Shown in pieces: positions 1 to 10,225 of a stretch of 40,885 nucleotides of DNA (its first letter is position 1; each line of letters opens with the position of its first letter). A program made the translations under genes and the position numbers. The stretch is from a virus: the UHGV virus genome UHGV-0869933, one strand, 5' to 3'. The notes under the pieces are model-generated. The model was not told where the DNA came from. It did no database searches and saw nothing but the letters and a program-made list of their open reading frames with translations.

Positions 1-88
1 TCTTTAGTCCTTCTGCACCCTGATTATTTCATCAGAAATTAATTATCACTCTGTTGTTATTCTGTACATCCCGGCAGGGTAAGTCTTG
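1..88. repeat. Left copy of an 88-bp perfect inverted repeat (partner at 740-827)
   Basis: Bases 1-88 are the exact reverse complement of 740-827, checked base by base; identity stops at 88/740. The window begins exactly at the repeat end, so the left boundary cannot be assessed. Confidence 0.9.
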
Positions 89-431
89 CTCTGCCACTAC
101 CTCCGGACACCTCCGGCAGCGTCGGGTCCGGCATATCACTCGCCGCTTCACGAGCAGACTTTTGTCGATGGCATTCGGTACAGAGCGTCCAGAGATTCGT
201 CTCCTCATTACCACCACCGAACTGAAGTGCAATTCGGTGATCGAGTTCACTGTCACAGAGGTCAACCACACGACCACAGAGACGGCACTGCCCGGCGTCC
301 CTGAGCCAGATATGACGCTTGAGGGAAACACGTGCACTGCCACTGACACGACGCTGTTCACCCTTCAGAATATTCACCCGTCGGGTATTCAGTGTTTTGA
401 TTCTGCTCTGGAGTGTACGAAGCTCAGCCAT
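57..431 (-). CDS. HNH endonuclease
   Basis: 124 aa with CxxC ... DH ... N ... CxxCH spacing typical of HNH nucleases; last 10 codons lie inside the left inverted repeat; HNH genes commonly sit next to cos/terminase in HK97-like and lambdoid phages. Confidence 0.7.
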   Translation of the reverse strand: MAELRTLQSRIKTLNTRRVNILKGEQRRVSGSARVSLKRHIWLRDAGQCRLCGRVVDLCDSELDHRIALQFGGGNEETNLWTLCTECHRQKSAREAASDMPDPTLPEVSGGSGRARLTLPGCTE

Positions 432-472
432 GTAAAATCCCCGTCATATGGCAATCAGTAAAGGAAATAAAT

Positions 473-673
473 ATGTCATCGAAAAACCGTACCCGCAGAA
501 CCACAACCCGCAATATCCGTTTCCCCAATCACATGATTGAACAGATCAACATCGCCCTTGAGCATAAAGGGTCCGGTAACTTTTCAGCGTGGGTTATTGA
601 AGCCTGCAGGAGAAGGCTGGCAACAGATGCAACGCATCTGCGCCCGGCCAGCATGACAAATAACGAGAAATGA
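473..673 (+). CDS. Small ribbon-helix-helix-like DNA-binding protein (YlcI/DUF3950-like)
   Basis: 66-aa ORF from an internal ATG with AGGA-type RBS about 8 nt upstream; basic N-terminus followed by NIRFPNHMIEQINIALE, an RHH-like signature; divergent from the HNH gene. Confidence 0.5.
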   Translation: MSSKNRTRRTTTRNIRFPNHMIEQINIALEHKGSGNFSAWVIEACRRRLATDATHLRPASMTNNEK

Positions 674-739
674 ACGTTCGGTTACAGGAGCAGGTACCCA
701 CTGTCCTCCAACAATATTTCATCTTCATATCCGACAGAA

Positions 740-827
740 CAAGACTTACCCTGCCGGGATGTACAGAATAACAACAGAGTGATAATTAATTTCTGATGAA
801 ATAATCAGGGTGCAGAAGGACTAAAGA
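740..827. repeat. Right copy of the 88-bp perfect inverted repeat
   Basis: Exact reverse complement of 1-88; overlaps the last 7 codons and stop of the 805-1146 gene. Confidence 0.9.
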
Positions 828-1146
828 TAAACGTTTTCTTCACGCCTTTACACGGCCTGTCCTTCTCAAATCGCCATTTTGCCATCGCCTTTACAACCTG
901 CTCATCAAACAGATGGTGCGGCTCTGAACGAATAAACTCAATTCGGGTGACAGTACCATCAGCACCAATATCAAACCTCACATCAACCCGTCCCTTTATA
1001 TAATTTGCCGCTGCATAGGCCGGATATTGTGGTAATGCCTTAACCAACTGTCGGGGCATATCTGTTTTATGTTGCGTACAGCCCATAACCAGAGAAGACA
1101 ACAAAATAATTAACGGAAGATTTCTTTTCATTTTCATTCCCCGCAC
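805..1146 (-). CDS. Lipoprotein with TonB C-terminal-like domain, at the bor position downstream of Rz
   Basis: N-terminal signal with lipobox-like LVMGC; C-terminal region (YPAYAAANYIKGRVDVRFDIGADGTVTRIEF ... AMAKWRF) resembles TonB_C; start may be the GTG at 1146 or the ATG at 1137. Confidence 0.6.
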   Translation of the reverse strand: MRGMKMKRNLPLIILLSSLVMGCTQHKTDMPRQLVKALPQYPAYAAANYIKGRVDVRFDIGADGTVTRIEFIRSEPHHLFDEQVVKAMAKWRFEKDRPCKGVKKTFIFSPSAP

Positions 1147-1147
1147 A

Positions 1148-1167
1148 GATAAGAATAAGTCTTATTC
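1148..1167. promoter_or_regulatory. Fur-box-like palindrome immediately 5' of the TonB-C lipoprotein gene
   Basis: GATAAGAATAAGTCTTATTC contains a perfect 8-bp inverted repeat (AGAATAAG/CTTATTCT) and resembles the GATAAT-hexamer Fur consensus; function is inferred only. Confidence 0.3.
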
Positions 1168-1469
1168 TAACAATGCCGCCCTGTCGGTCATCAATCCTCT
1201 GCTTAATGGCAACGACAATTATCCGACTTAAATCACAAATCAGACACATGACATAACAGGGCTTGCGAGGTAACACATCGTCCTGTTTCTTCCACCATCG
1301 CACCGGACTGGCGACTATGAGGGGACAACGCCGCGCTCCGTTAACGCGGTAAACCCCGGTGTGTATCGTTTTTGATTATCCCCGCACACTCGCGCAGAGG
1401 AGTCTCCCTGTCGGGCTGCGGTCTCTGTTAATGAGGGAATACAGCGACGATACGGCGCATCAGCAAAAC

Positions 1470-1937
1470 TTAGTTCAGGCACTGAGTGCGGATATAGTCC
1501 TGTGCCCCTTCCAGCTGCTTCTGCATTGTCATCAACCGTTCTCTGAGGATGAAATAATCCCGTTCAGCGGTGTCTGCCAGTCGGGGGCCGGTTGCATTAT
1601 CCACGCCGGAGGTGCCGGTGGCTTCACGCACTGTACCGGAGCAGGTGGCGTTGATCCGCAGGCGCTTACGACCAGCGGCAACATCAGCACGCAGAGTTTC
1701 ATTTTCAGCTCTCGCATCGGCTAATTCCCTCGAGTATCTGGCATCAAGTTCAGCGACATCACGCTGGCGTATCTGCATATCAGTAATTGTCGCGTTCGCC
1801 AGTTTCAGCTCACTGACTTTTTTATCGCGCTGCGCTTTGTAGGTGATGGCGTTATCGCGGTAATGATTCAGCCCCAGACTAAGCACACCACAGGCTACCA
1901 GCAGGACAATAATCACCACACACAGAACACGGTTCAT
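1470..1937 (-). CDS. Rz: Rz i-spanin
   Basis: From [17 protein letters not shown]: N-terminal TM then coiled-coil periplasmic domain closely matching lambda Rz ([16 protein letters not shown] ... TAERDYF ... MQKQLEG); the track ORF extends upstream of the real start. Confidence 0.9.
1532..1717 (-). CDS. Rz1: Rz1 o-spanin lipoprotein, embedded in Rz in the +1 frame
   Basis: [53 protein letters not shown] matches lambda Rz1 (lipobox, proline-rich); classic embedded architecture. Confidence 0.85.
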
Positions 1938-1938
1938 A

Positions 1939-2025
1939 TCACCACCAACGGATTGCCCAGACCAGAACAGCAATGGCCACAATACGAATGGCAAATGCCA
2001 TTGCCCGAATAAGTTCAGCACTCAT
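1939..2025 (-). CDS. Tiny hydrophobic ORF (28 aa), fourth of four between endolysin and Rz
   Basis: My translation: [28 protein letters not shown]; stop lies 1 nt before the Rz ATG; weak RBS; below the track length cut-off. Confidence 0.25.
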
Positions 2026-2036
2026 CTTTTTAAAGT

Positions 2037-2162
2037 TCACGATTTCAGCGCAATGACCAGTTTTGCCAGCCCATACAGCATCGGAGACACAGCAATACCA
2101 ACAGCCACCCACTTAATAGCAAAAGCCAGCGCTCTGCTGATGTCATCAGTCACTGTCACCCC
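2037..2162 (-). CDS. Tiny hydrophobic ORF (about 41 aa, GTG start)
   Basis: VTVTDDISRALAFAIKWVAVGIAVSPMLYGLAKLVIALKS; the GTG start overlaps the upstream stop as GTGA; single predicted TM helix. Confidence 0.3.
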   Translation of the reverse strand, partial: GVTVTDDISRALAFAIKWVAVGIAVSPMLYGLAKLVIALKS

Positions 2163-2287
2163 AGCAGCCCCGACGAAGACAACATCACCCAGGCGAGGGA
2201 CAGAAAAAGAGCAACCAGCATTAGTGAAAATGAAATACCGACAATCACACACAGGACCTTTGCCGGCGTTATGAGTTTGTCTGACAT
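2159..2287 (-). CDS. Tiny hydrophobic ORF (42 aa)
   Basis: MSDKLITPAKVLCVIVGISFSLMLVALFLSLAWVMLSSSGLLG; good RBS (AAGGGG, 6 nt spacing); single TM helix. Confidence 0.4.
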
Positions 2288-2289
2288 AG

Positions 2290-2385
2290 CTACCCCTTAA
2301 TTGCCACAATTAACTGGGATACTACCCATAAAAAAGGGATGCTCCAGACCAGCAAAAATTTCCAGTTTGGTAATTGACTAATCAT
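2290..2385 (-). CDS. Tiny hydrophobic ORF (31 aa)
   Basis: MISQLPNWKFLLVWSIPFLWVVSQLIVAIKG; RBS AGGGAG about 11 nt upstream; stop 2 nt before the next ORF. Confidence 0.35.
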   Translation of the reverse strand: MISQLPNWKFLLVWSIPFLWVVSQLIVAIKG

Positions 2386-2450
2386 GAGTCGCAACTCCCT
2401 AATCAGTTTGCTAAAATCAATCAAGGCAGCCTCCCATAGCTTACTGCCAT

Positions 2451-2490
2451 AAAAACAAAACCCCGCTTGCTGCCAACAAACGGGGTTTTT
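2451..2490 (-). terminator. Intrinsic terminator-like hairpin downstream of the endolysin
   Basis: CCCCG-15 nt loop-CGGGG with flanking A-run and T-run, giving a U-tract on either strand. Confidence 0.6.
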
Positions 2491-2579
2491 ACTTTTATTC
2501 ACTTACATTTTGCCAGTTCGCAGGATTTCGTGTTATCCGTCCGCCTTGGCCAACGTCATTGATTAGCAAAATATTCTGC

Positions 2580-3113
2580 TTATCTGTCGATTCCCCAGCA
2601 CGCCAGCGCGCTCTCCTGGTCACGACGGGATACCTGACCGTAACAGTTATTTGAGCGAATACGGCAGTCTCTGCCACCGTCCTTAATCCACCAGCGAATC
2701 GCCTCACACGCTCCCCTGCGATCACCTGCATTAATTCGTTTATAAAACGTCGACGGAAAACACTTACCGGGGCCAATGTTGTACGGACAGAATGACGCGA
2801 TCCCCGCTTTCTGGGGTTCACTCAATGGCACTCTGATGTTTTTCTCCACCCATGCCAGCGCCTTATCACGCTCAATGGCGTTAACCCGGTCGCATTTTTC
2901 CTTCGACAACTTCATGCCCGGAACGACAGGTTTGCCATCCACCAGGATGGCACCGCGGCAGATGGTCCAGATACCCGCGCCATCACGGTATGCCGTGGTG
3001 TGGTTACCTTCCTTTTCATCCAGAAACTGGTCGAGAATGTCAGGCGCAGGCGCACCAGCGGCAATCAGCGCCAGAACGGCAGCCGACAGGCCGTATCTGA
3101 TTTTTGCGTTCAT
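2580..3113 (-). CDS. R: SAR endolysin (phage lysozyme, P21/P1-Lyz type)
   Basis: 177 aa; N-terminal weakly hydrophobic Gly/Ala-rich signal-anchor-release segment (GLSAAVLALIAAGA); E-x8-D-x5-T catalytic spacing (EGNHTTAYRDGAGIWT) of T4-lysozyme-like SAR endolysins. Confidence 0.9.
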   Translation of the reverse strand: MNAKIRYGLSAAVLALIAAGAPAPDILDQFLDEKEGNHTTAYRDGAGIWTICRGAILVDGKPVVPGMKLSKEKCDRVNAIERDKALAWVEKNIRVPLSEPQKAGIASFCPYNIGPGKCFPSTFYKRINAGDRRGACEAIRWWIKDGGRDCRIRSNNCYGQVSRRDQESALACWGIDR

Positions 3114-3218
3114 GGATATTTATCAGGATTTATCGGTTTCTGAGCCCTGGATATGTTTATCAGTTCCAGCCTGTTGCCTCAGGCTGCTAACAGGTCAATA
3201 CAATCATGAGGATTATTT

Positions 3219-3491
3219 ATGGACAATAACACCATTTCTCTACAGGAGTTGCTCGACAGCATTTCCAGGCTTCGGGAAGACGTGAATACCCTTACCGTCG
3301 CCTTCTCATATCTGGCATTCTCAATTCCAAGGGAACAGATGCAATCAACGCTGGCATCAATCCAGTTTGAATCATGCAATCCCAAATGGTCTCAGGAACA
3401 ACAAGACTCTTTCAGGCGGCTTGCTGTATTACTGGATGAAAAATATGCTGGTAAAATTACCATTTCGGCGGACTCTTCAGAGAACCCGTAA
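3219..3491 (+). CDS. Hypothetical protein, opposite strand inside the lysis cassette
   Basis: 90-aa ORF with GAGGA RBS 6 nt upstream of the ATG; converges on and overlaps the 3' end of the 3457-3801 gene by 35 bp; no family recognised. Confidence 0.4.
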   Translation: MDNNTISLQELLDSISRLREDVNTLTVAFSYLAFSIPREQMQSTLASIQFESCNPKWSQEQQDSFRRLAVLLDEKYAGKITISADSSENP

Positions 3492-3801
3492 TTATTCCCG
3501 GTAGTTTTCCTCTGTAGGTTATCAACACATCCTGCGCCTCTAAAATTACGGGGCGCTTTTCCGGCGACTGCTCATCCCCTTCACATAACCCGGCAGCAAC
3601 ATCCAGGAAGACCTGTCTGATGCTCCTTCTGGCTGCTGCCTCATAAAACTCCAGCGCGGCACCTTCAACACGGTCCAGCGAGATGTCCAGGTCAAAAATT
3701 TCACCGTCAAAGCGTTTTTTGTCCCGTAACGCTAAAGTTACCGTAACTTTATTCTCAAAATTGCGGATCCCTTTCACAATCAGTTCATAGTTTTGAGTCA
3801 T
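3457..3801 (-). CDS. Hypothetical protein between holin and endolysin (position of Qin ydfR)
   Basis: 114-aa ORF starting 5 nt after the holin stop with GGGGAGAG RBS; the YdfR equivalence is by position only. Confidence 0.5.
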   Translation of the reverse strand: MTQNYELIVKGIRNFENKVTVTLALRDKKRFDGEIFDLDISLDRVEGAALEFYEAAARRSIRQVFLDVAAGLCEGDEQSPEKRPVILEAQDVLITYRGKLPGIITGSLKSPPKW

Positions 3802-3805
3802 TGAA

Positions 3806-4021
3806 TTACTCTCCCCGTGCAGCCTTACGACGGTCCTCTCTGATTTTGAAATACAGGTTAGTCAGATATGTCAGCAGCCCAAACAGCAGACTCCCCAGCA
3901 CGCCTATTGCCGCCCACTGAGACGGGGAAACCCTGTCCAGCAACTGCAGGAACCAGTAGCCCGTTCCCACCGCTGACGTGGTGTATGACACACCTGTTGT
4001 GATTTTTTCCATCTGGTACAT
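3806..4021 (-). CDS. S: Pinholin (phage 21 S-like class II holin) with dual-start motif
   Basis: [13 protein letters not shown] ... [50 protein letters not shown] closely matches S21; two Met codons (M1, M4) fit holin/antiholin dual starts; the track ORF is extended upstream. Confidence 0.85.
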
Positions 4022-4171
4022 ACCCCGTCTCCCGTTATCCGGAAGCTGACAACAATAAAAAAAGCCACCAGTTAAGTACTGATGGCTCTGATAACTCATG
4101 CAGGCATCTCAGACGACCCACTGACACTACCGGTGAGTTTAACGATACCTTCCATTTGACTGGCTCACTTT

Positions 4172-6028
4172 TTATGATGATGCTGGTGCATTTATCTCCA
4201 GCACCAGACTTTCTATCTCAACGCCATACGCTGCATTTTTGGTAATATCCGTCAGCGTCAGCGCATTCAGCCCCAGTGTCAGACTGTCTTTTATGACCTG
4301 GAATGCCGGGCCAGCCACTCCATTCAGTTTCGGAGTAACCGTGGCACTGCCGGCGGTGAACACCAGTTCCAGCGTCTGCCAGTCGTTACTGTAATTCCCG
4401 AACTCGCCCAACTTTGTGTTTCCGGCTTTCTTGTGATGCATCAGATTCAGTTTGCCGTCTGTGGTCTGGGTGAAGAACGACATCAGGAACGGGTTACCAG
4501 TCCCGGTCATCGCCACGACGTCAGGTAACGCTACATCGGTATACAGATAAATTCCCAGACCGAACTGGTTGTTGGTCAGTGCGCCTGACAGTCGAAACTT
4601 ACAGCTCAGTCTGCCACCCCGTGTCAGCAGGGAGACTGCGTCATCCACCGGATGCATCAGGGACCAGGTTTTATTGCTCTGCTTGGTAACCTTAAACACA
4701 CCATCTTCCAGCGCAACACTGCCGCCGGTGATGGTCCAGCCCTGCGCAGCAGCCTCTCCGGCTGTCGGCAGCAGGGAGACTGTACGAACGGATGTGTCAC
4801 CATCAGACGGCCCCGATGGCGTGTCGCCGCCGGGCGAGGGTTTAATCTCCGGTGCGGTACCGCTGATGAAGGCGCTGGTTCGACCAACTGCGTTCAGAAT
4901 AGCGGTTGCCAGGCGATCCGAAATAATGCCCCTGCGCGCCCATGAACTGAAATGTGTCGGACGATTTGACGATACCCAATTACCATTACTACGGGATTGC
5001 GCGCCGTAATAACCTGCATCAGCAATATCCGGGTCTTCTGCCGGTAAGTTGGTGGGCGTGTTGTTGCCGTTACCGTCGGTCATGAACGGCACAAAGAAAA
5101 CGTTGTCGCTCTCCCTGTTTTTGTACGCGCCGTAGACGGAGTCATACTGTGTGCCGTATGTGTTTTTCCAGTAATACGTCGTGTCGCCACAAATCCACGG
5201 TACAACTGCAGCACTGCCGCCATGGCACTGCGCGTTAAATCCGGAAAGGTCAGTACGGAACTGCTTCAGCATGGCCGTGAACAGGTCCGGTTGCTGTGCG
5301 TAGGTGGCAGCGCTCATGTCAAATTCGCCCTGCATCCAGCACACCGCCAGCAACACATTTTTCGGGTTCTTCTGTAATGCCGCTTTGGTGCGTGCGATCA
5401 GGTCCTGATATAACGGTTTACCCACACCCCAGCGTGCCGAATCCTGGCTGGCCCCCGTGTCCGCACTGAATGTCCCCTCCGCGCCCTGGGTGAATGCCGA
5501 ACCACCACGACAGCATGGTACCAGCAGGATCCCCGCGTTATTCGGGATATACGGAAGCAGTTTTTTGGCAATATGTAAGCCCTGGCCGACACAGCCGTAC
5601 TGCCCTTTGCTCAGGTCTGCCTTCGGATGATTCAGTGCGCTCATATCCTGAACATCATGCAGGCAGTGGTCTGCCGGAATGATGTCGTTAAATGCGCATG
5701 CTTTACCACCGGGAGTCACTGTGTTGCGACGGGCCAGTTGCTTAATGCGTGGGTGGGGCGCATCGTAAGAATCCGGAAGCGGAAGCCCTTCACCGTAAGC
5801 CATGGCATTGGATTGCCCGGCCAGTACGATGACGTAGTACCACTCCGGCTCAGTTGCACCACTGACGACCACATCACCTTCTGCTGCAATCGCCTGCATC
5901 AGGGTATAAGGGGTTATGGCCACCGGACTACCAAACGGCTGCCAGCCCTCTTTCAGTTTATGTGTCAGCTTTTCCGCAAGATCTGACGGCGACGCCGCCC
6001 TGACAACATCATAGTGTTTAAATGCCAT
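4172..6028 (-). CDS. nanS: Prophage-type sialate O-acetylesterase NanS-p (DUF1737 + SGNH/SASA esterase + C-terminal domain)
   Basis: N-terminal MAFKHYDVVRAASPSDLAEKL (DUF1737-like), GQSNA esterase motif, about 620 aa; sits between the stx-equivalent locus and the holin, as in Stx and related lambdoid phages. Confidence 0.8.
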   Translation of the reverse strand: MAFKHYDVVRAASPSDLAEKLTHKLKEGWQPFGSPVAITPYTLMQAIAAEGDVVVSGATEPEWYYVIVLAGQSNAMAYGEGLPLPDSYDAPHPRIKQLARRNTVTPGGKACAFNDIIPADHCLHDVQDMSALNHPKADLSKGQYGCVGQGLHIAKKLLPYIPNNAGILLVPCCRGGSAFTQGAEGTFSADTGASQDSARWGVGKPLYQDLIARTKAALQKNPKNVLLAVCWMQGEFDMSAATYAQQPDLFTAMLKQFRTDLSGFNAQCHGGSAAVVPWICGDTTYYWKNTYGTQYDSVYGAYKNRESDNVFFVPFMTDGNGNNTPTNLPAEDPDIADAGYYGAQSRSNGNWVSSNRPTHFSSWARRGIISDRLATAILNAVGRTSAFISGTAPEIKPSPGGDTPSGPSDGDTSVRTVSLLPTAGEAAAQGWTITGGSVALEDGVFKVTKQSNKTWSLMHPVDDAVSLLTRGGRLSCKFRLSGALTNNQFGLGIYLYTDVALPDVVAMTGTGNPFLMSFFTQTTDGKLNLMHHKKAGNTKLGEFGNYSNDWQTLELVFTAGSATVTPKLNGVAGPAFQVIKDSLTLGLNALTLTDITKNAAYGVEIESLVLEINAPASS

Positions 6029-6288
6029 GGTTCTTTCCACCATCTGAAAAATGATTCTTTAAAATACCTGACATGTAATACAGAAAAAACACAAAACCAT
6101 ACCTTAAATAAAAACCTCATCATCAAGCAGATATGCATGGATAAACTACAAGACGAGATATAAACCACCCTGCATTTAAATAAACAATAAACAACATCAG
6201 AAAAATAATTCTGCTCTATGGTTTACAATCAAAAATATCATTTATACTTTTCAGAACATCACCAGCAAGGCATAAACAAGGAAACTAA

Positions 6289-9403: not shown

Positions 9404-10225
9404 CTATCGCGTTACCCTCTTTAACTGCCGCTCCGCCCATGCCTCTTCAATGTCAAACCGAACCACCAACGTATCGTAAAAGCGTTTCACTGATTTTTTC
9501 CACGTATCAAGCGTGATAGCACTCGTCACTTTGCATATGGCATTAAATGCCTCCGTTGATGGCAGCCTTTCACAGCCACGACCACCACAACGCTGGCAAT
9601 CTCTGATAACAGGCATACCACGTTTTACCGACTCTTCACGATGAATGGCGACACCACGCCCACGGCAATCCTTACAGGCGGTGGAAACCTCACCCTTTCC
9701 GCCACACTCCGGACAGGCAACTTTTACCACCTCCCTGACTTTTTTCCATTCTTCCCAGTAAGACGGATACACGCCTTTTGTGCACTTTGCCCACACTGGT
9801 GGCTTACCATCCGGATACTGGATCTTGTTTGTAAAAACCTCGCTTTCAATAAATTTTTTTCCGTGACAGCAGGGGCACTGTTTTTTGCTCGCCGCGCTAC
9901 GGGCATAATCTTCAAACGCATACGAAGCCATAATGCGCATCACTACCGGTTTTATTTCTGCCGGAAGTTTTCTCAACGCCGCCACACGATCGCACCGACT
10001 GAGTGCATAATCTGCCAGTAATTCTGTTGCCCGCGCCCTGTCATTCATACTGATGCCCATTTTCCCCAGGAACGCAGAAAACCCCATCTCAGCCCGATTC
10101 TGTGTCATGCCCTGCGCGGCCATCACATCAGTGATACTCAGCGCATCTTTTGACGTTGAGGCCGATGCATCGGTCAGGCCAGGGGATTTTGGGGAGTAGT
10201 ATTTCGGTAAATCTTCCAGTTTCAT
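9404..10225 (-). CDS. Q: Late antiterminator Q-like protein (zinc-binding)
   Basis: 273 aa with several CxxC pairs; sits between rusA and pR' exactly where lambdoid Q genes lie; family assignment is from context and motifs. Confidence 0.6.
   Translation of the reverse strand: MKLEDLPKYYSPKSPGLTDASASTSKDALSITDVMAAQGMTQNRAEMGFSAFLGKMGISMNDRARATELLADYALSRCDRVAALRKLPAEIKPVVMRIMASYAFEDYARSAASKKQCPCCHGKKFIESEVFTNKIQYPDGKPPVWAKCTKGVYPSYWEEWKKVREVVKVACPECGGKGEVSTACKDCRGRGVAIHREESVKRGMPVIRDCQRCGGRGCERLPSTEAFNAICKVTSAITLDTWKKSVKRFYDTLVVRFDIEEAWAERQLKRVTR

Follow-up and report, generated by a model that had tools for sequence, protein, structure and literature searches.

Lysis of Gram-negative hosts is usually told with three components, holin, endolysin and spanin, to which accessory regulators such as P1 LydB, the lambda S107 and S21-71 antiholins, and T4 RI and RIII are added. 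In the Shewanella prophage LambdaSo, lysis by a pinholin and a signal-arrest-release (SAR) endolysin strictly requires Lcc6, a single-transmembrane (TM) protein of 65 amino acids (aa) with an N-terminal TM helix and a 43-aa cytoplasmic tail, which is encoded far from the lysis cassette (bioRxiv 10.1101/2024.01.23.576932). Small TM lysis cofactors are also described in two further sources: Mu gp25 releasin (DUF2730; PMC9239132) and P1 LydC and LydD (PMC9025707). Here, we consider four very small open reading frames (ORFs), called A to D, that separate the endolysin gene from Rz in a lambdoid prophage, from the virus genome UHGV-0869933; the window is the whole stretch of DNA analysed, 40,885 nucleotides (nt) in length.

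The predicted products are, like Lcc6, small single-TM phage proteins of a lambda-like phage that has a pinholin, a SAR endolysin and Rz/Rz1, and Lcc6 is evidence that the holin step can involve a small membrane factor of a fourth kind. Compared by description, however, Lcc6 is essential, whereas the peptides here are dispensable across phages; they are also only 28–60 aa in length, have the helix mostly at the C-terminus, and are encoded inside the cassette. With Mu releasin, P1 LydB, LydC and LydD, S107, S21-71 and RI/RIII they share the property of being small membrane-associated proteins encoded together with lysis genes; the known regulators act on the triggering of the holin or the release of the SAR endolysin. 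The peptides here show no similarity to any of those regulators in Pfam, NCBIfam or the PDB, have no relation to a holin dual start, and lack any sizeable periplasmic or cytoplasmic domain.

Four small genes and their families

Comparison of alleles establishes the four ORFs as genuine protein-coding genes, predicted to specify very small single-helix membrane peptides. The layout by itself is only marginally unusual, in that 27 of 1000 dinucleotide shuffles matched its same-strand ORF coverage, and the case for the genes thus rests on homology and purifying selection. Distinct alleles were drawn from about 500 loci (IMG/VR, GenBank phages, RefSeq Escherichia coli and other assemblies), and the ratio of nonsynonymous to synonymous substitution rates (dN/dS) in the proposed frame was 0.20 for A (34 alleles), about 0.35 for B (26 alleles), 0.18 for C (0.15–0.21; 23 alleles), and 0.07 for D (11 alleles; 37-aa form). 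Variable columns are enriched at the third codon position (15/3/30 by codon position in C, 8/2/26 in D), no allele carries a stop codon in the proposed frame, and lengths are nearly constant; the other five frames have higher dN/dS values than the proposed one and stops in most. A preliminary description of this DNA had suggested that the ORFs could be small membrane proteins and that related genomes be compared for frame conservation as opposed to drift. The comparison bears it out: these are real genes in conserved families, constant in length and position, with purifying selection in all four (dN/dS 0.07–0.35) and no in-frame stops among the alleles. The antisense frame that shares wobble positions is open in B, C and D, with dN/dS values of 0.15–0.46 that always exceed the sense value, and is interrupted by stops in 22 of the 34 A alleles. 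A 73-aa antisense ORF across C and B (2053-2274, plus strand) was considered as a gene and rejected; it is probably a by-product of the hydrophobic sense codons.

The endolysin stop (2580) and the Rz start (1937) are separated by 642 nt, close to the roughly 640 base pairs estimated earlier, and the premise that lambda and phage 21 have no such genes there is consistent with the Qin and DLP12 prophages of E. coli K-12, where endolysin and Rz abut. Four tandem minus-strand ORFs had been placed in this interval. All are present, but the first is longer than was thought: the 31-codon frame from the ATG at 2385 is merely the 3' part of the 44-codon ORF A, which begins with the TTG at 2424. The 13 residues added (IDFSKLIRELRLM) are nearly invariant among homologues from E. 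coli, Salmonella, Providencia, Citrobacter, Enterobacter and Klebsiella, codons 2–14 have a dN/dS of 0.28, and the start position is kept across alleles as TTG, ATG or GTG. The A stop codon is followed by CT and the ATG of B, for which AAGGGG serves as the Shine-Dalgarno sequence; the B stop overlaps the C GTG (GGGGTGA); an 11-nt gap with a weak Shine-Dalgarno sequence separates C from D; and D runs into Rz as TGA-T-ATG.

One TM helix per ORF had also been predicted, and each peptide does have a single hydrophobic stretch (best 19-residue Kyte-Doolittle window, 1.9–2.9). Beyond it are C-terminal tails of only 0–7 residues (KG, SSSGLLG, ALKS and IRWW), which contain no or one charged residue. 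Cysteine is absent from A, C and D, and the sole B cysteine, which has no lipobox, lies within the TM helix; the residues preceding the helix are net positive in A and B only. No holin family was matched (Pfam and NCBIfam, E ≤ 1), the TM stretch of a holin is present while its highly charged hydrophilic C-terminal tail is not, and the cassette already has a PF04971 holin. No sequence relation to that S21-type holin, which has its own MYQM dual start, was detected that would point to an antiholin. As to the spanins, Rz and Rz1 are separately present; the peptides of the window, at 28–44 aa and with the helix at or near the C-terminus, have no periplasmic coiled-coil domain, and none has a lipobox cysteine.

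The ORFs belong to three families: A, B, and the paralogues C and D, the last two being homologous with an hhalign probability of 96.5% (E 9e-10). No significant relationship was found between A and D, which have the ...IRWW end in common, or between B and C. All match PHROGs profiles labelled "unknown function", B at 4.5e-21, C at 6.4e-25, D at 3.8e-6, and A, in a 70-aa reading, at 1.3e-12 with the match covering the N-terminal extension. C also matches phrog_3246 and phrog_4493; the 90-aa phrog_3246 and a number of deposited proteins result from calls that extend too far, reading on across the B frame or the hairpin upstream of the genes. The C of the window is an N-terminally shortened member of phrog_1115, the full form being 60 aa (MAKYKRILLRLTMKNG...) and matching positions 8-67 of 67 (2.6e-42). 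Similarly, D is a short-N-terminus member of phrog_4493, of which the full-length form covers positions 1-54 of 56 (1.4e-24). Where D stands alone, its length is 50 aa if read from a leader GTG and 37 aa from the ATG annotated in GER2; the N-terminal region of stand-alone D, like that of stand-alone C (60 aa), is charged. The short-N-terminus class, M[SN]xE[LF][IL]R..., occurs in at least four diverged alleles, and a divergent 28-aa D allele reads MSTDFIRATAFAIRLVAIAVLIWAVRWW.

Relatives are uniformly small. A homologues from the six genera named above are 44–45 aa in length, with matches up to 70 aa, and an exhaustive A profile search of 1.84 billion representatives returned 39 relatives of 24–86 aa together with one spurious match of 710 aa (E 5e-5). 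B homologues form 103 clusters, the named ones all from E. coli; full-length members mostly have 43–44 aa, there are also longer or partial calls, and no match exceeds 73 aa. C homologues in E. coli and Salmonella have 38–60 aa (database matches, 22–70 aa). No credible long homologue was found in protein sets of 5.8 billion or 1.84 billion sequences. No peptide had a match in Pfam or NCBIfam at E ≤ 1, in a PDB sequence search, or among the PADLOC defence and anti-defence profiles at E ≤ 1, and of 40 pattern sites from a scan of genome contigs with the C alignment, tblastn confirmed none.

Annotation of the genes is uneven. RefSeq contains hypothetical proteins of the module (WP_001280935.1, which is B; WP_042004856.1; and WP_032140280.1, which is D). 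On the ST131 chromosome, PGAP called B, an over-extended 51-aa C that overlaps B, and D, but not A, whereas in phage records A (at times as a 70-aa ORF through the hairpin), B and C are annotated and D is left out. In most of the annotated records inspected, D and the actual TTG start of the 44-aa A were overlooked or wrongly called.

Table 1. Features of the window, followed by related features in surveyed loci (L numbers denote individual loci).
Feature	Position	Strand	Remarks
Q-type antiterminator	9404..10225	-	PF03589; upstream of the cassette on the same strand
SASA esterase	4172-6043	-	
Phage-21-type class II holin/pinholin	3806..4021	-	PF04971; MYQM dual-start motif; first lysis-cassette gene
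DUF1327 (YdfR-like) gene	3457-3801	-	3' of holin
Endolysin	2580..3113	-	Phage_lysozyme PF00959; N-terminal SAR-like hydrophobic segment; upstream of the small-gene module
Terminator-like hairpin	2457..2489	-	15 pairs and T-run; A-tract before, T-tract after; 5' boundary of module
Shine-Dalgarno GGGAGG for ORF A	2430..2435	-	5 nt upstream of TTG 2424
ORF A	2290..2424	-	44 aa, TTG start; (M)IDFSKLIRELRLMISQLPNWKFLLVWSIPFLWVVSQLIVAIKG; N-terminal amphipathic segment, then one TM helix; phrog_6632
ORF B	2156..2287	-	43 aa; MSDKLITPAKVLCVIVGISFSLMLVALFLSLAWVMLSSSGLLG; one TM helix; phrog_4906; stop inside GGGGTGA
ORF C	2037..2159	-	40 aa; GTG start overlapping B stop; VTVTDDISRALAFAIKWVAVGIAVSPMLYGLAKLVIALKS; one TM helix; phrog_1115
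ORF D	1939..2025	-	28 aa; one TM helix; phrog_4493; stop 1 nt before Rz ATG
Rz i-spanin	1470..1937	-	PF03245; coupled to ORF D
Rz1 o-spanin	1532-1717	-	PF06085; embedded in Rz
Family A of ...IRWW type outside lysis genes	L099 1762-1899 (Salmonella phage SEN34); L105 2501-2638; L104 2501-2638; L234; L237		same upstream hairpin
phrog_7528 lipoprotein	L005 2806-2961; L008 2806-2961; L098 1886-2068; L106 about 2762		76 of 247 loci

Module boundaries, arrangements and spread

The small genes occur in shuffled combinations in hundreds of E. coli and Salmonella prophages, and comparison of their loci shows the module to be a portable, recombining accessory part of the lysis cassettes of enterobacterial temperate phages. 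Over 505 loci, the arrangements were A-B-C-D in 159, C-B in 136, A alone in 83, D alone in 82, B alone in 24, A-B in six, C alone in five, and C-B-C-D in four, counts that are biased by locus sampling. Initial scans with B and C gave only near-identical A-B-C-D loci; divergent IMG/VR loci were reached once divergent members were placed first in the alignments. The four C-B-C-D loci, all from IMG/VR, have the C family twice, which suggests that the A-B-C-D and C-B arrangements recombine with each other.

Named phages and prophages illustrate the range: endolysin-C(60 aa)-B-Rz in O157:H7 and strain C7, endolysin-ant-A-B-Rz in Shiga toxin (Stx) 1a phages, endolysin-ant-B-Rz in Stx2 phages of the 933W/P13374 type (B is ORF53 of P13374), endolysin-C-Rz in Salmonella prophages, endolysin-D-Rz in GER2, and an unannotated A between endolysin and Rz in Salmonella phage SPN3UB. 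ST131 and O104:H4 prophages have A-B-C-D; Stx1 and Stx2 phages have B, either by itself or together with A. A 471-nt core is shared with 100% identity by the chromosomes of ST131 and other E. coli; of 5426 complete E. coli genomes, 1747 contained some or all of it and 588 at least 80%. Parts of it were found in 316 phage records, mostly of Stx-converting phages.

At its 5' end, the module opens with a hairpin that had been described as strong and terminator-like, an impression that folding upholds (-24.2 kcal/mol, z = -4.95, equalled by 0 of 200 shuffles). A homologous GC-rich hairpin with A-tract and T-tract precedes the first small gene, be it A, C or D, in about nine of every 10 loci, and its end is 28–37 nt from the start of A. 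Among 26 distinct versions aligned, compensatory double changes were seen in seven of 12 stem pairs (e.g., CCCCG/CGGGG, GCTCCG/CGGAGC and GGCCCAG/CTGGGCC). Between hairpin and start codon is a common leader, TTTCTG..CCTTGA..AAGGCAAGGGAGAAC, and both hairpin and leader are kept in the baseplate and tail contexts described below. The hairpin travels with the first small gene and belongs to the module.

The 3' ends are likewise of common types. B ends in GGGGTGA, the GTG of which is in frame with the next gene, C in the window and Rz in Stx phages, where the annotated Rz ATG is 7–12 nt beyond that GTG; D and RWW-type A lead by CGTTGGTGGTGA-N-ATG straight into the next gene. These shared 3' linkers are likely the recombination points by which modules have been shuffled.

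On the endolysin side, about 90 nt following the stop codon (2490-2579, minus strand) are conserved between this prophage and Stx phages (L003 1522-1605; L004 1020-1105), up to GTGAATAAA. Beyond it, the inserts differ, each having its own terminator-like hairpin, followed by A here and by ant in Stx phages. In sequence, the GTGAATAAA boundary looks like a fixed recombination junction.

Neighbouring genes and the late region

Neighbours were surveyed in 247 non-redundant loci with flanks, using Pfam for their identity. The upstream gene was a SAR Phage_lysozyme in 116 (including an alternative-frame ORF in the same gene), a GH108 endolysin in 38, an M15 peptidase in 21, a 93-aa protein that itself follows an endolysin in 19, ant in 19, a 138-aa endolysin-like protein in five, and a GH19 endolysin in four; five unrelated endolysin types thus precede modules, and ant, where it is the upstream gene, is itself 3' of an endolysin. 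The downstream gene was Rz in 136 loci, a 60-aa lipoprotein (phrog_7528) in 76, and a small overlapped i-/o-spanin pair in four. About 87% of the loci have the module between endolysin and outer-membrane-disruption genes, even though holins and endolysins are non-homologous among the cassettes, and for the B, C and D families only about six of the loci were outside lysis cassettes.

In cassettes with Phage_holin_8 and Phage_holin_3_7 and a GH108 or M15 endolysin, no Rz-like i-spanin was called. In these, the phrog_7528 lipoprotein comes directly after the small TM peptides, often 1 nt past the RWW stop; it has the lipobox LVGC and a mature part of 30 residues with three cysteines, and may be an unrecognised outer-membrane disruptor.

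The minus strand at the left end of the window is a lambdoid prophage late region, in the order Q, DNA methylase, SASA esterase, holin, DUF1327/YdfR, endolysin and Rz/Rz1, and with Q upstream on the same strand the cassette is within a Q-dependent late operon. The endolysin, annotated elsewhere as an rrrQ lysozyme, is assigned its SAR character from the N-terminal sequence MNAKIRYGLSAAVLALIAAGA. On the minus strand from 1400 to 4300, a consensus scan, which weak or non-sigma-70 promoters would escape, detected nothing resembling a sigma-70 site. Shuffles would yield 3.0 ± 1.9 matches, and the scan gave two; the single promoter-like site in the antisense direction (2281-2310, plus strand) is within this chance expectation. 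An Rfam scan of positions 1-6000 gave no family match at E ≤ 1.

Other features of the region were noted. A 90-aa ORF on the opposite strand within the lysis cassette (3219-3491, plus), between the DUF1327/YdfR gene and the endolysin and overlapping the 3' end of ydfR, matches phrog_2411 (function unassigned, E 1e-58) and is hypothetical in PGAP. Downstream of Rz is a TonB-C-like lipoprotein gene (MKRNLPLIILLSSLVMGC...; 805-1146, minus), present in the window and in strain C7. It is absent from the ST131 prophage with the same A-D block, and the window and ST131 prophages are therefore mosaic relatives rather than one element. A 93-nt inverted repeat, 99% complementary, has its arms at 1-93 and 735-827 and flanks 641 nt containing an HNH endonuclease gene (57-431, minus) and a DUF3950 ylcI-like gene (413-673, plus). 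The left arm reaches the edge of the window and may extend further; the segment could be invertible or recently inverted.

Possible roles of the peptides

With a confidence that falls just short of even, we favour the reading that the peptides are late-expressed accessory inner-membrane peptides acting as dispensable modulators of the membrane steps of lysis, and a role in lysis timing is plausible. The module begins with a conserved intrinsic-terminator-like hairpin and the common ribosome-binding leader, and the coupling motif at its end would pass ribosomes to the following outer-membrane-disruption gene. The peptides would be made only late, on Q-antiterminated transcripts along with Rz/Rz1, because the module has a terminator in front of it, shows no detectable promoter, and lies 3' of Q in the same orientation. 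They would then insert into the cytoplasmic membrane, where an N-in orientation is suggested for A and B only, since it is in these two that the pre-helix residues are net positive. They might act on pinholin triggering and SAR-endolysin release, or on how spanins accumulate and function. Such action would resemble that of the unrelated small TM proteins LambdaSo Lcc6, Mu releasin and P1 LydB, LydC and LydD at the holin and endolysin steps.

Several observations weigh against this reading. Family A, with its hairpin, is found in 19 loci of SEN34-type myoviruses between a baseplate spike-like gene and a gp25-like gene, and a few copies are in siphovirus tail clusters next to tail-tip genes; A, at least, needs no position in a lysis cassette. 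The K-12 Qin and DLP12 cassettes have no such peptides, which are thus dispensable for the lysis pathway as such, and to our knowledge the lambda and phage 21 cassettes also do without them. The peptides show no fidelity to one type of holin, endolysin or spanin, which argues against a specific protein partner. The endolysin-Rz junction also hosts unrelated inserts, e.g., ant in Stx phages, and the position of the module may reflect a recombination hot spot rather than function. In addition, C and D of the window lack the charged N-terminal region of the full-length forms, and for B the dN/dS of the sense frame (0.36) is only modestly below that of the wobble-sharing antisense frame (0.46).

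Alternatively, the peptides could be morons with a role unrelated to lysis, such as superinfection exclusion, a block to DNA entry, or modulation of a host membrane protein, parked at a permissive recombination junction in the late operon; we regard this as a possible but rather unlikely explanation. HK97 gp15, a small inner-membrane protein encoded by a moron of the tail region, mediates superinfection exclusion, and the genes here resemble HK97 gp15 and lambda bor and lom in being small accessory genes between conserved late genes, mosaic in distribution, and associated with an intrinsic terminator. Presence/absence polymorphism between syntenic late genes and variable module order are as expected of morons, as are the A copies with the same hairpin in baseplate and tail clusters, the ant genes at the same endolysin-Rz junction in Stx phages, and the fact that each insert opens with its own hairpin right after the conserved GTGAATAAA junction. 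Classical morons, however, are expressed in the prophage from a promoter that belongs to them, and a terminator follows them. Here, the coding strand has no promoter-like site in the consensus sigma-70 scan, the hairpin is upstream of the first small gene rather than downstream, and the last small gene runs, under tight translational coupling, into the next late gene; the lysogen expression typical of morons is thus not expected. A hot spot alone also has difficulty in explaining why B, C and D hardly occur except between an endolysin gene and a spanin or lipoprotein gene, with endolysins of five non-homologous types.

It is less probable, indeed improbable, that the peptides are cofactors or regulators of the outer-membrane step, working with Rz/Rz1 or the 60-aa lipoprotein either to hold the spanin inactive until the wall has been degraded or to aid its anchoring or maturation. 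The last small gene is directly 5' of the Rz, i-spanin or lipoprotein gene and usually coupled to it, and in the Phage_holin_8/Phage_holin_3_7 cassettes only small TM peptides and the lipoprotein follow the endolysin. Nevertheless, with C-terminal tails so short the peptides have essentially no periplasmic domain, the partners encoded downstream are of no fewer than three unrelated kinds, no covariation was seen between the type of peptide and that of spanin, and family A is found away from any spanin.

The preliminary description had also raised type I toxins, and we consider it very improbable that these are type I toxin-antitoxin-like loci, in which hydrophobic toxic peptides would be controlled by an antisense RNA ending at a bidirectional hairpin. 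The peptides are as small and hydrophobic as Hok, Ibs, Ldr, TisB and ZorO, a hairpin with A-tract and T-tract could terminate both strands, and the plus-strand promoter-like site is directed through ORF A to the hairpin. However, the scan that found this site performed at chance level; its -35 is the reverse complement of the first B codons and its -10 lies in the C-terminal A codons, an arrangement impossible where A is alone, and the -10 hexamer is not conserved in the Stx1a phage L004. Unlike type I toxins, the locus showed no antisense RNA gene and no Rfam match, and its four genes stand in a row, co-oriented with the late operon and translationally coupled. Least credible, and contradicted by the comparative data, is that the ORFs are non-functional, either decayed fragments of a larger membrane-protein gene, as had been suggested, or chance spacer ORFs: the marginal layout statistic and the N-terminally shorter C and D of the window would fit, but all four families are under purifying selection, each ORF has its own family and its own start, relatives are all small with no long homologue in the protein sets searched, modules occur singly or reordered, and the short-N-terminus class recurs in diverged alleles.

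If lysis modulation is nonetheless what the peptides do, a wider and frankly doubtful proposal, built on analogy with Lcc6, is that they make up a so far unrecognised fourth class of component, portable between the lysis cassettes of Gram-negative phages. As tail-anchored peptides translated together with the outer-membrane disruptor and exchangeable for one another, they would set the time or sharpness of envelope failure; where Rz is missing, they may pair with the 60-aa phrog_7528 lipoprotein as a minimal non-spanin system for outer-membrane disruption. Because Stx1 and Stx2 phages and ST131 and O104:H4 prophages carry them, they would then affect when toxin and phage are released.

The existence of the ORFs is not new, as hypothetical proteins in the databases attest. 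Literature searches by topic, accession number and peptide string turned up neither a paper about the proteins nor a functional description, and the passages searched in a comparative paper on Stx phages (PMC8136144) do not mention them. As far as we found, the grammar of the three-family module, the corrected A start, the hairpin-led portable unit with its covariation, and the placement of B, C and D, with few exceptions, behind an endolysin and ahead of an outer-membrane disruptor have likewise not been described.

Mu releasin and LambdaSo Lcc6 indicate that further small membrane proteins can be decisive in lysis. Three uncharacterised peptide families under clear purifying selection are present, at least in part, in the lysis cassettes of about one-third of complete E. 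coli genomes, and, if they modulate lysis, they would be a sequence-unrelated addition to the accessory small membrane proteins of phage lysis. Natural cassettes with zero to four of the peptides offer a simple genetic system for lysis modulation. Even if their role is unrelated to lysis, a hairpin-plus-mini-gene module that is found across lysis, baseplate and tail operons illustrates how very small phage genes spread; if they do tune lysis, the timing of the burst and the release of Shiga toxin would be affected.

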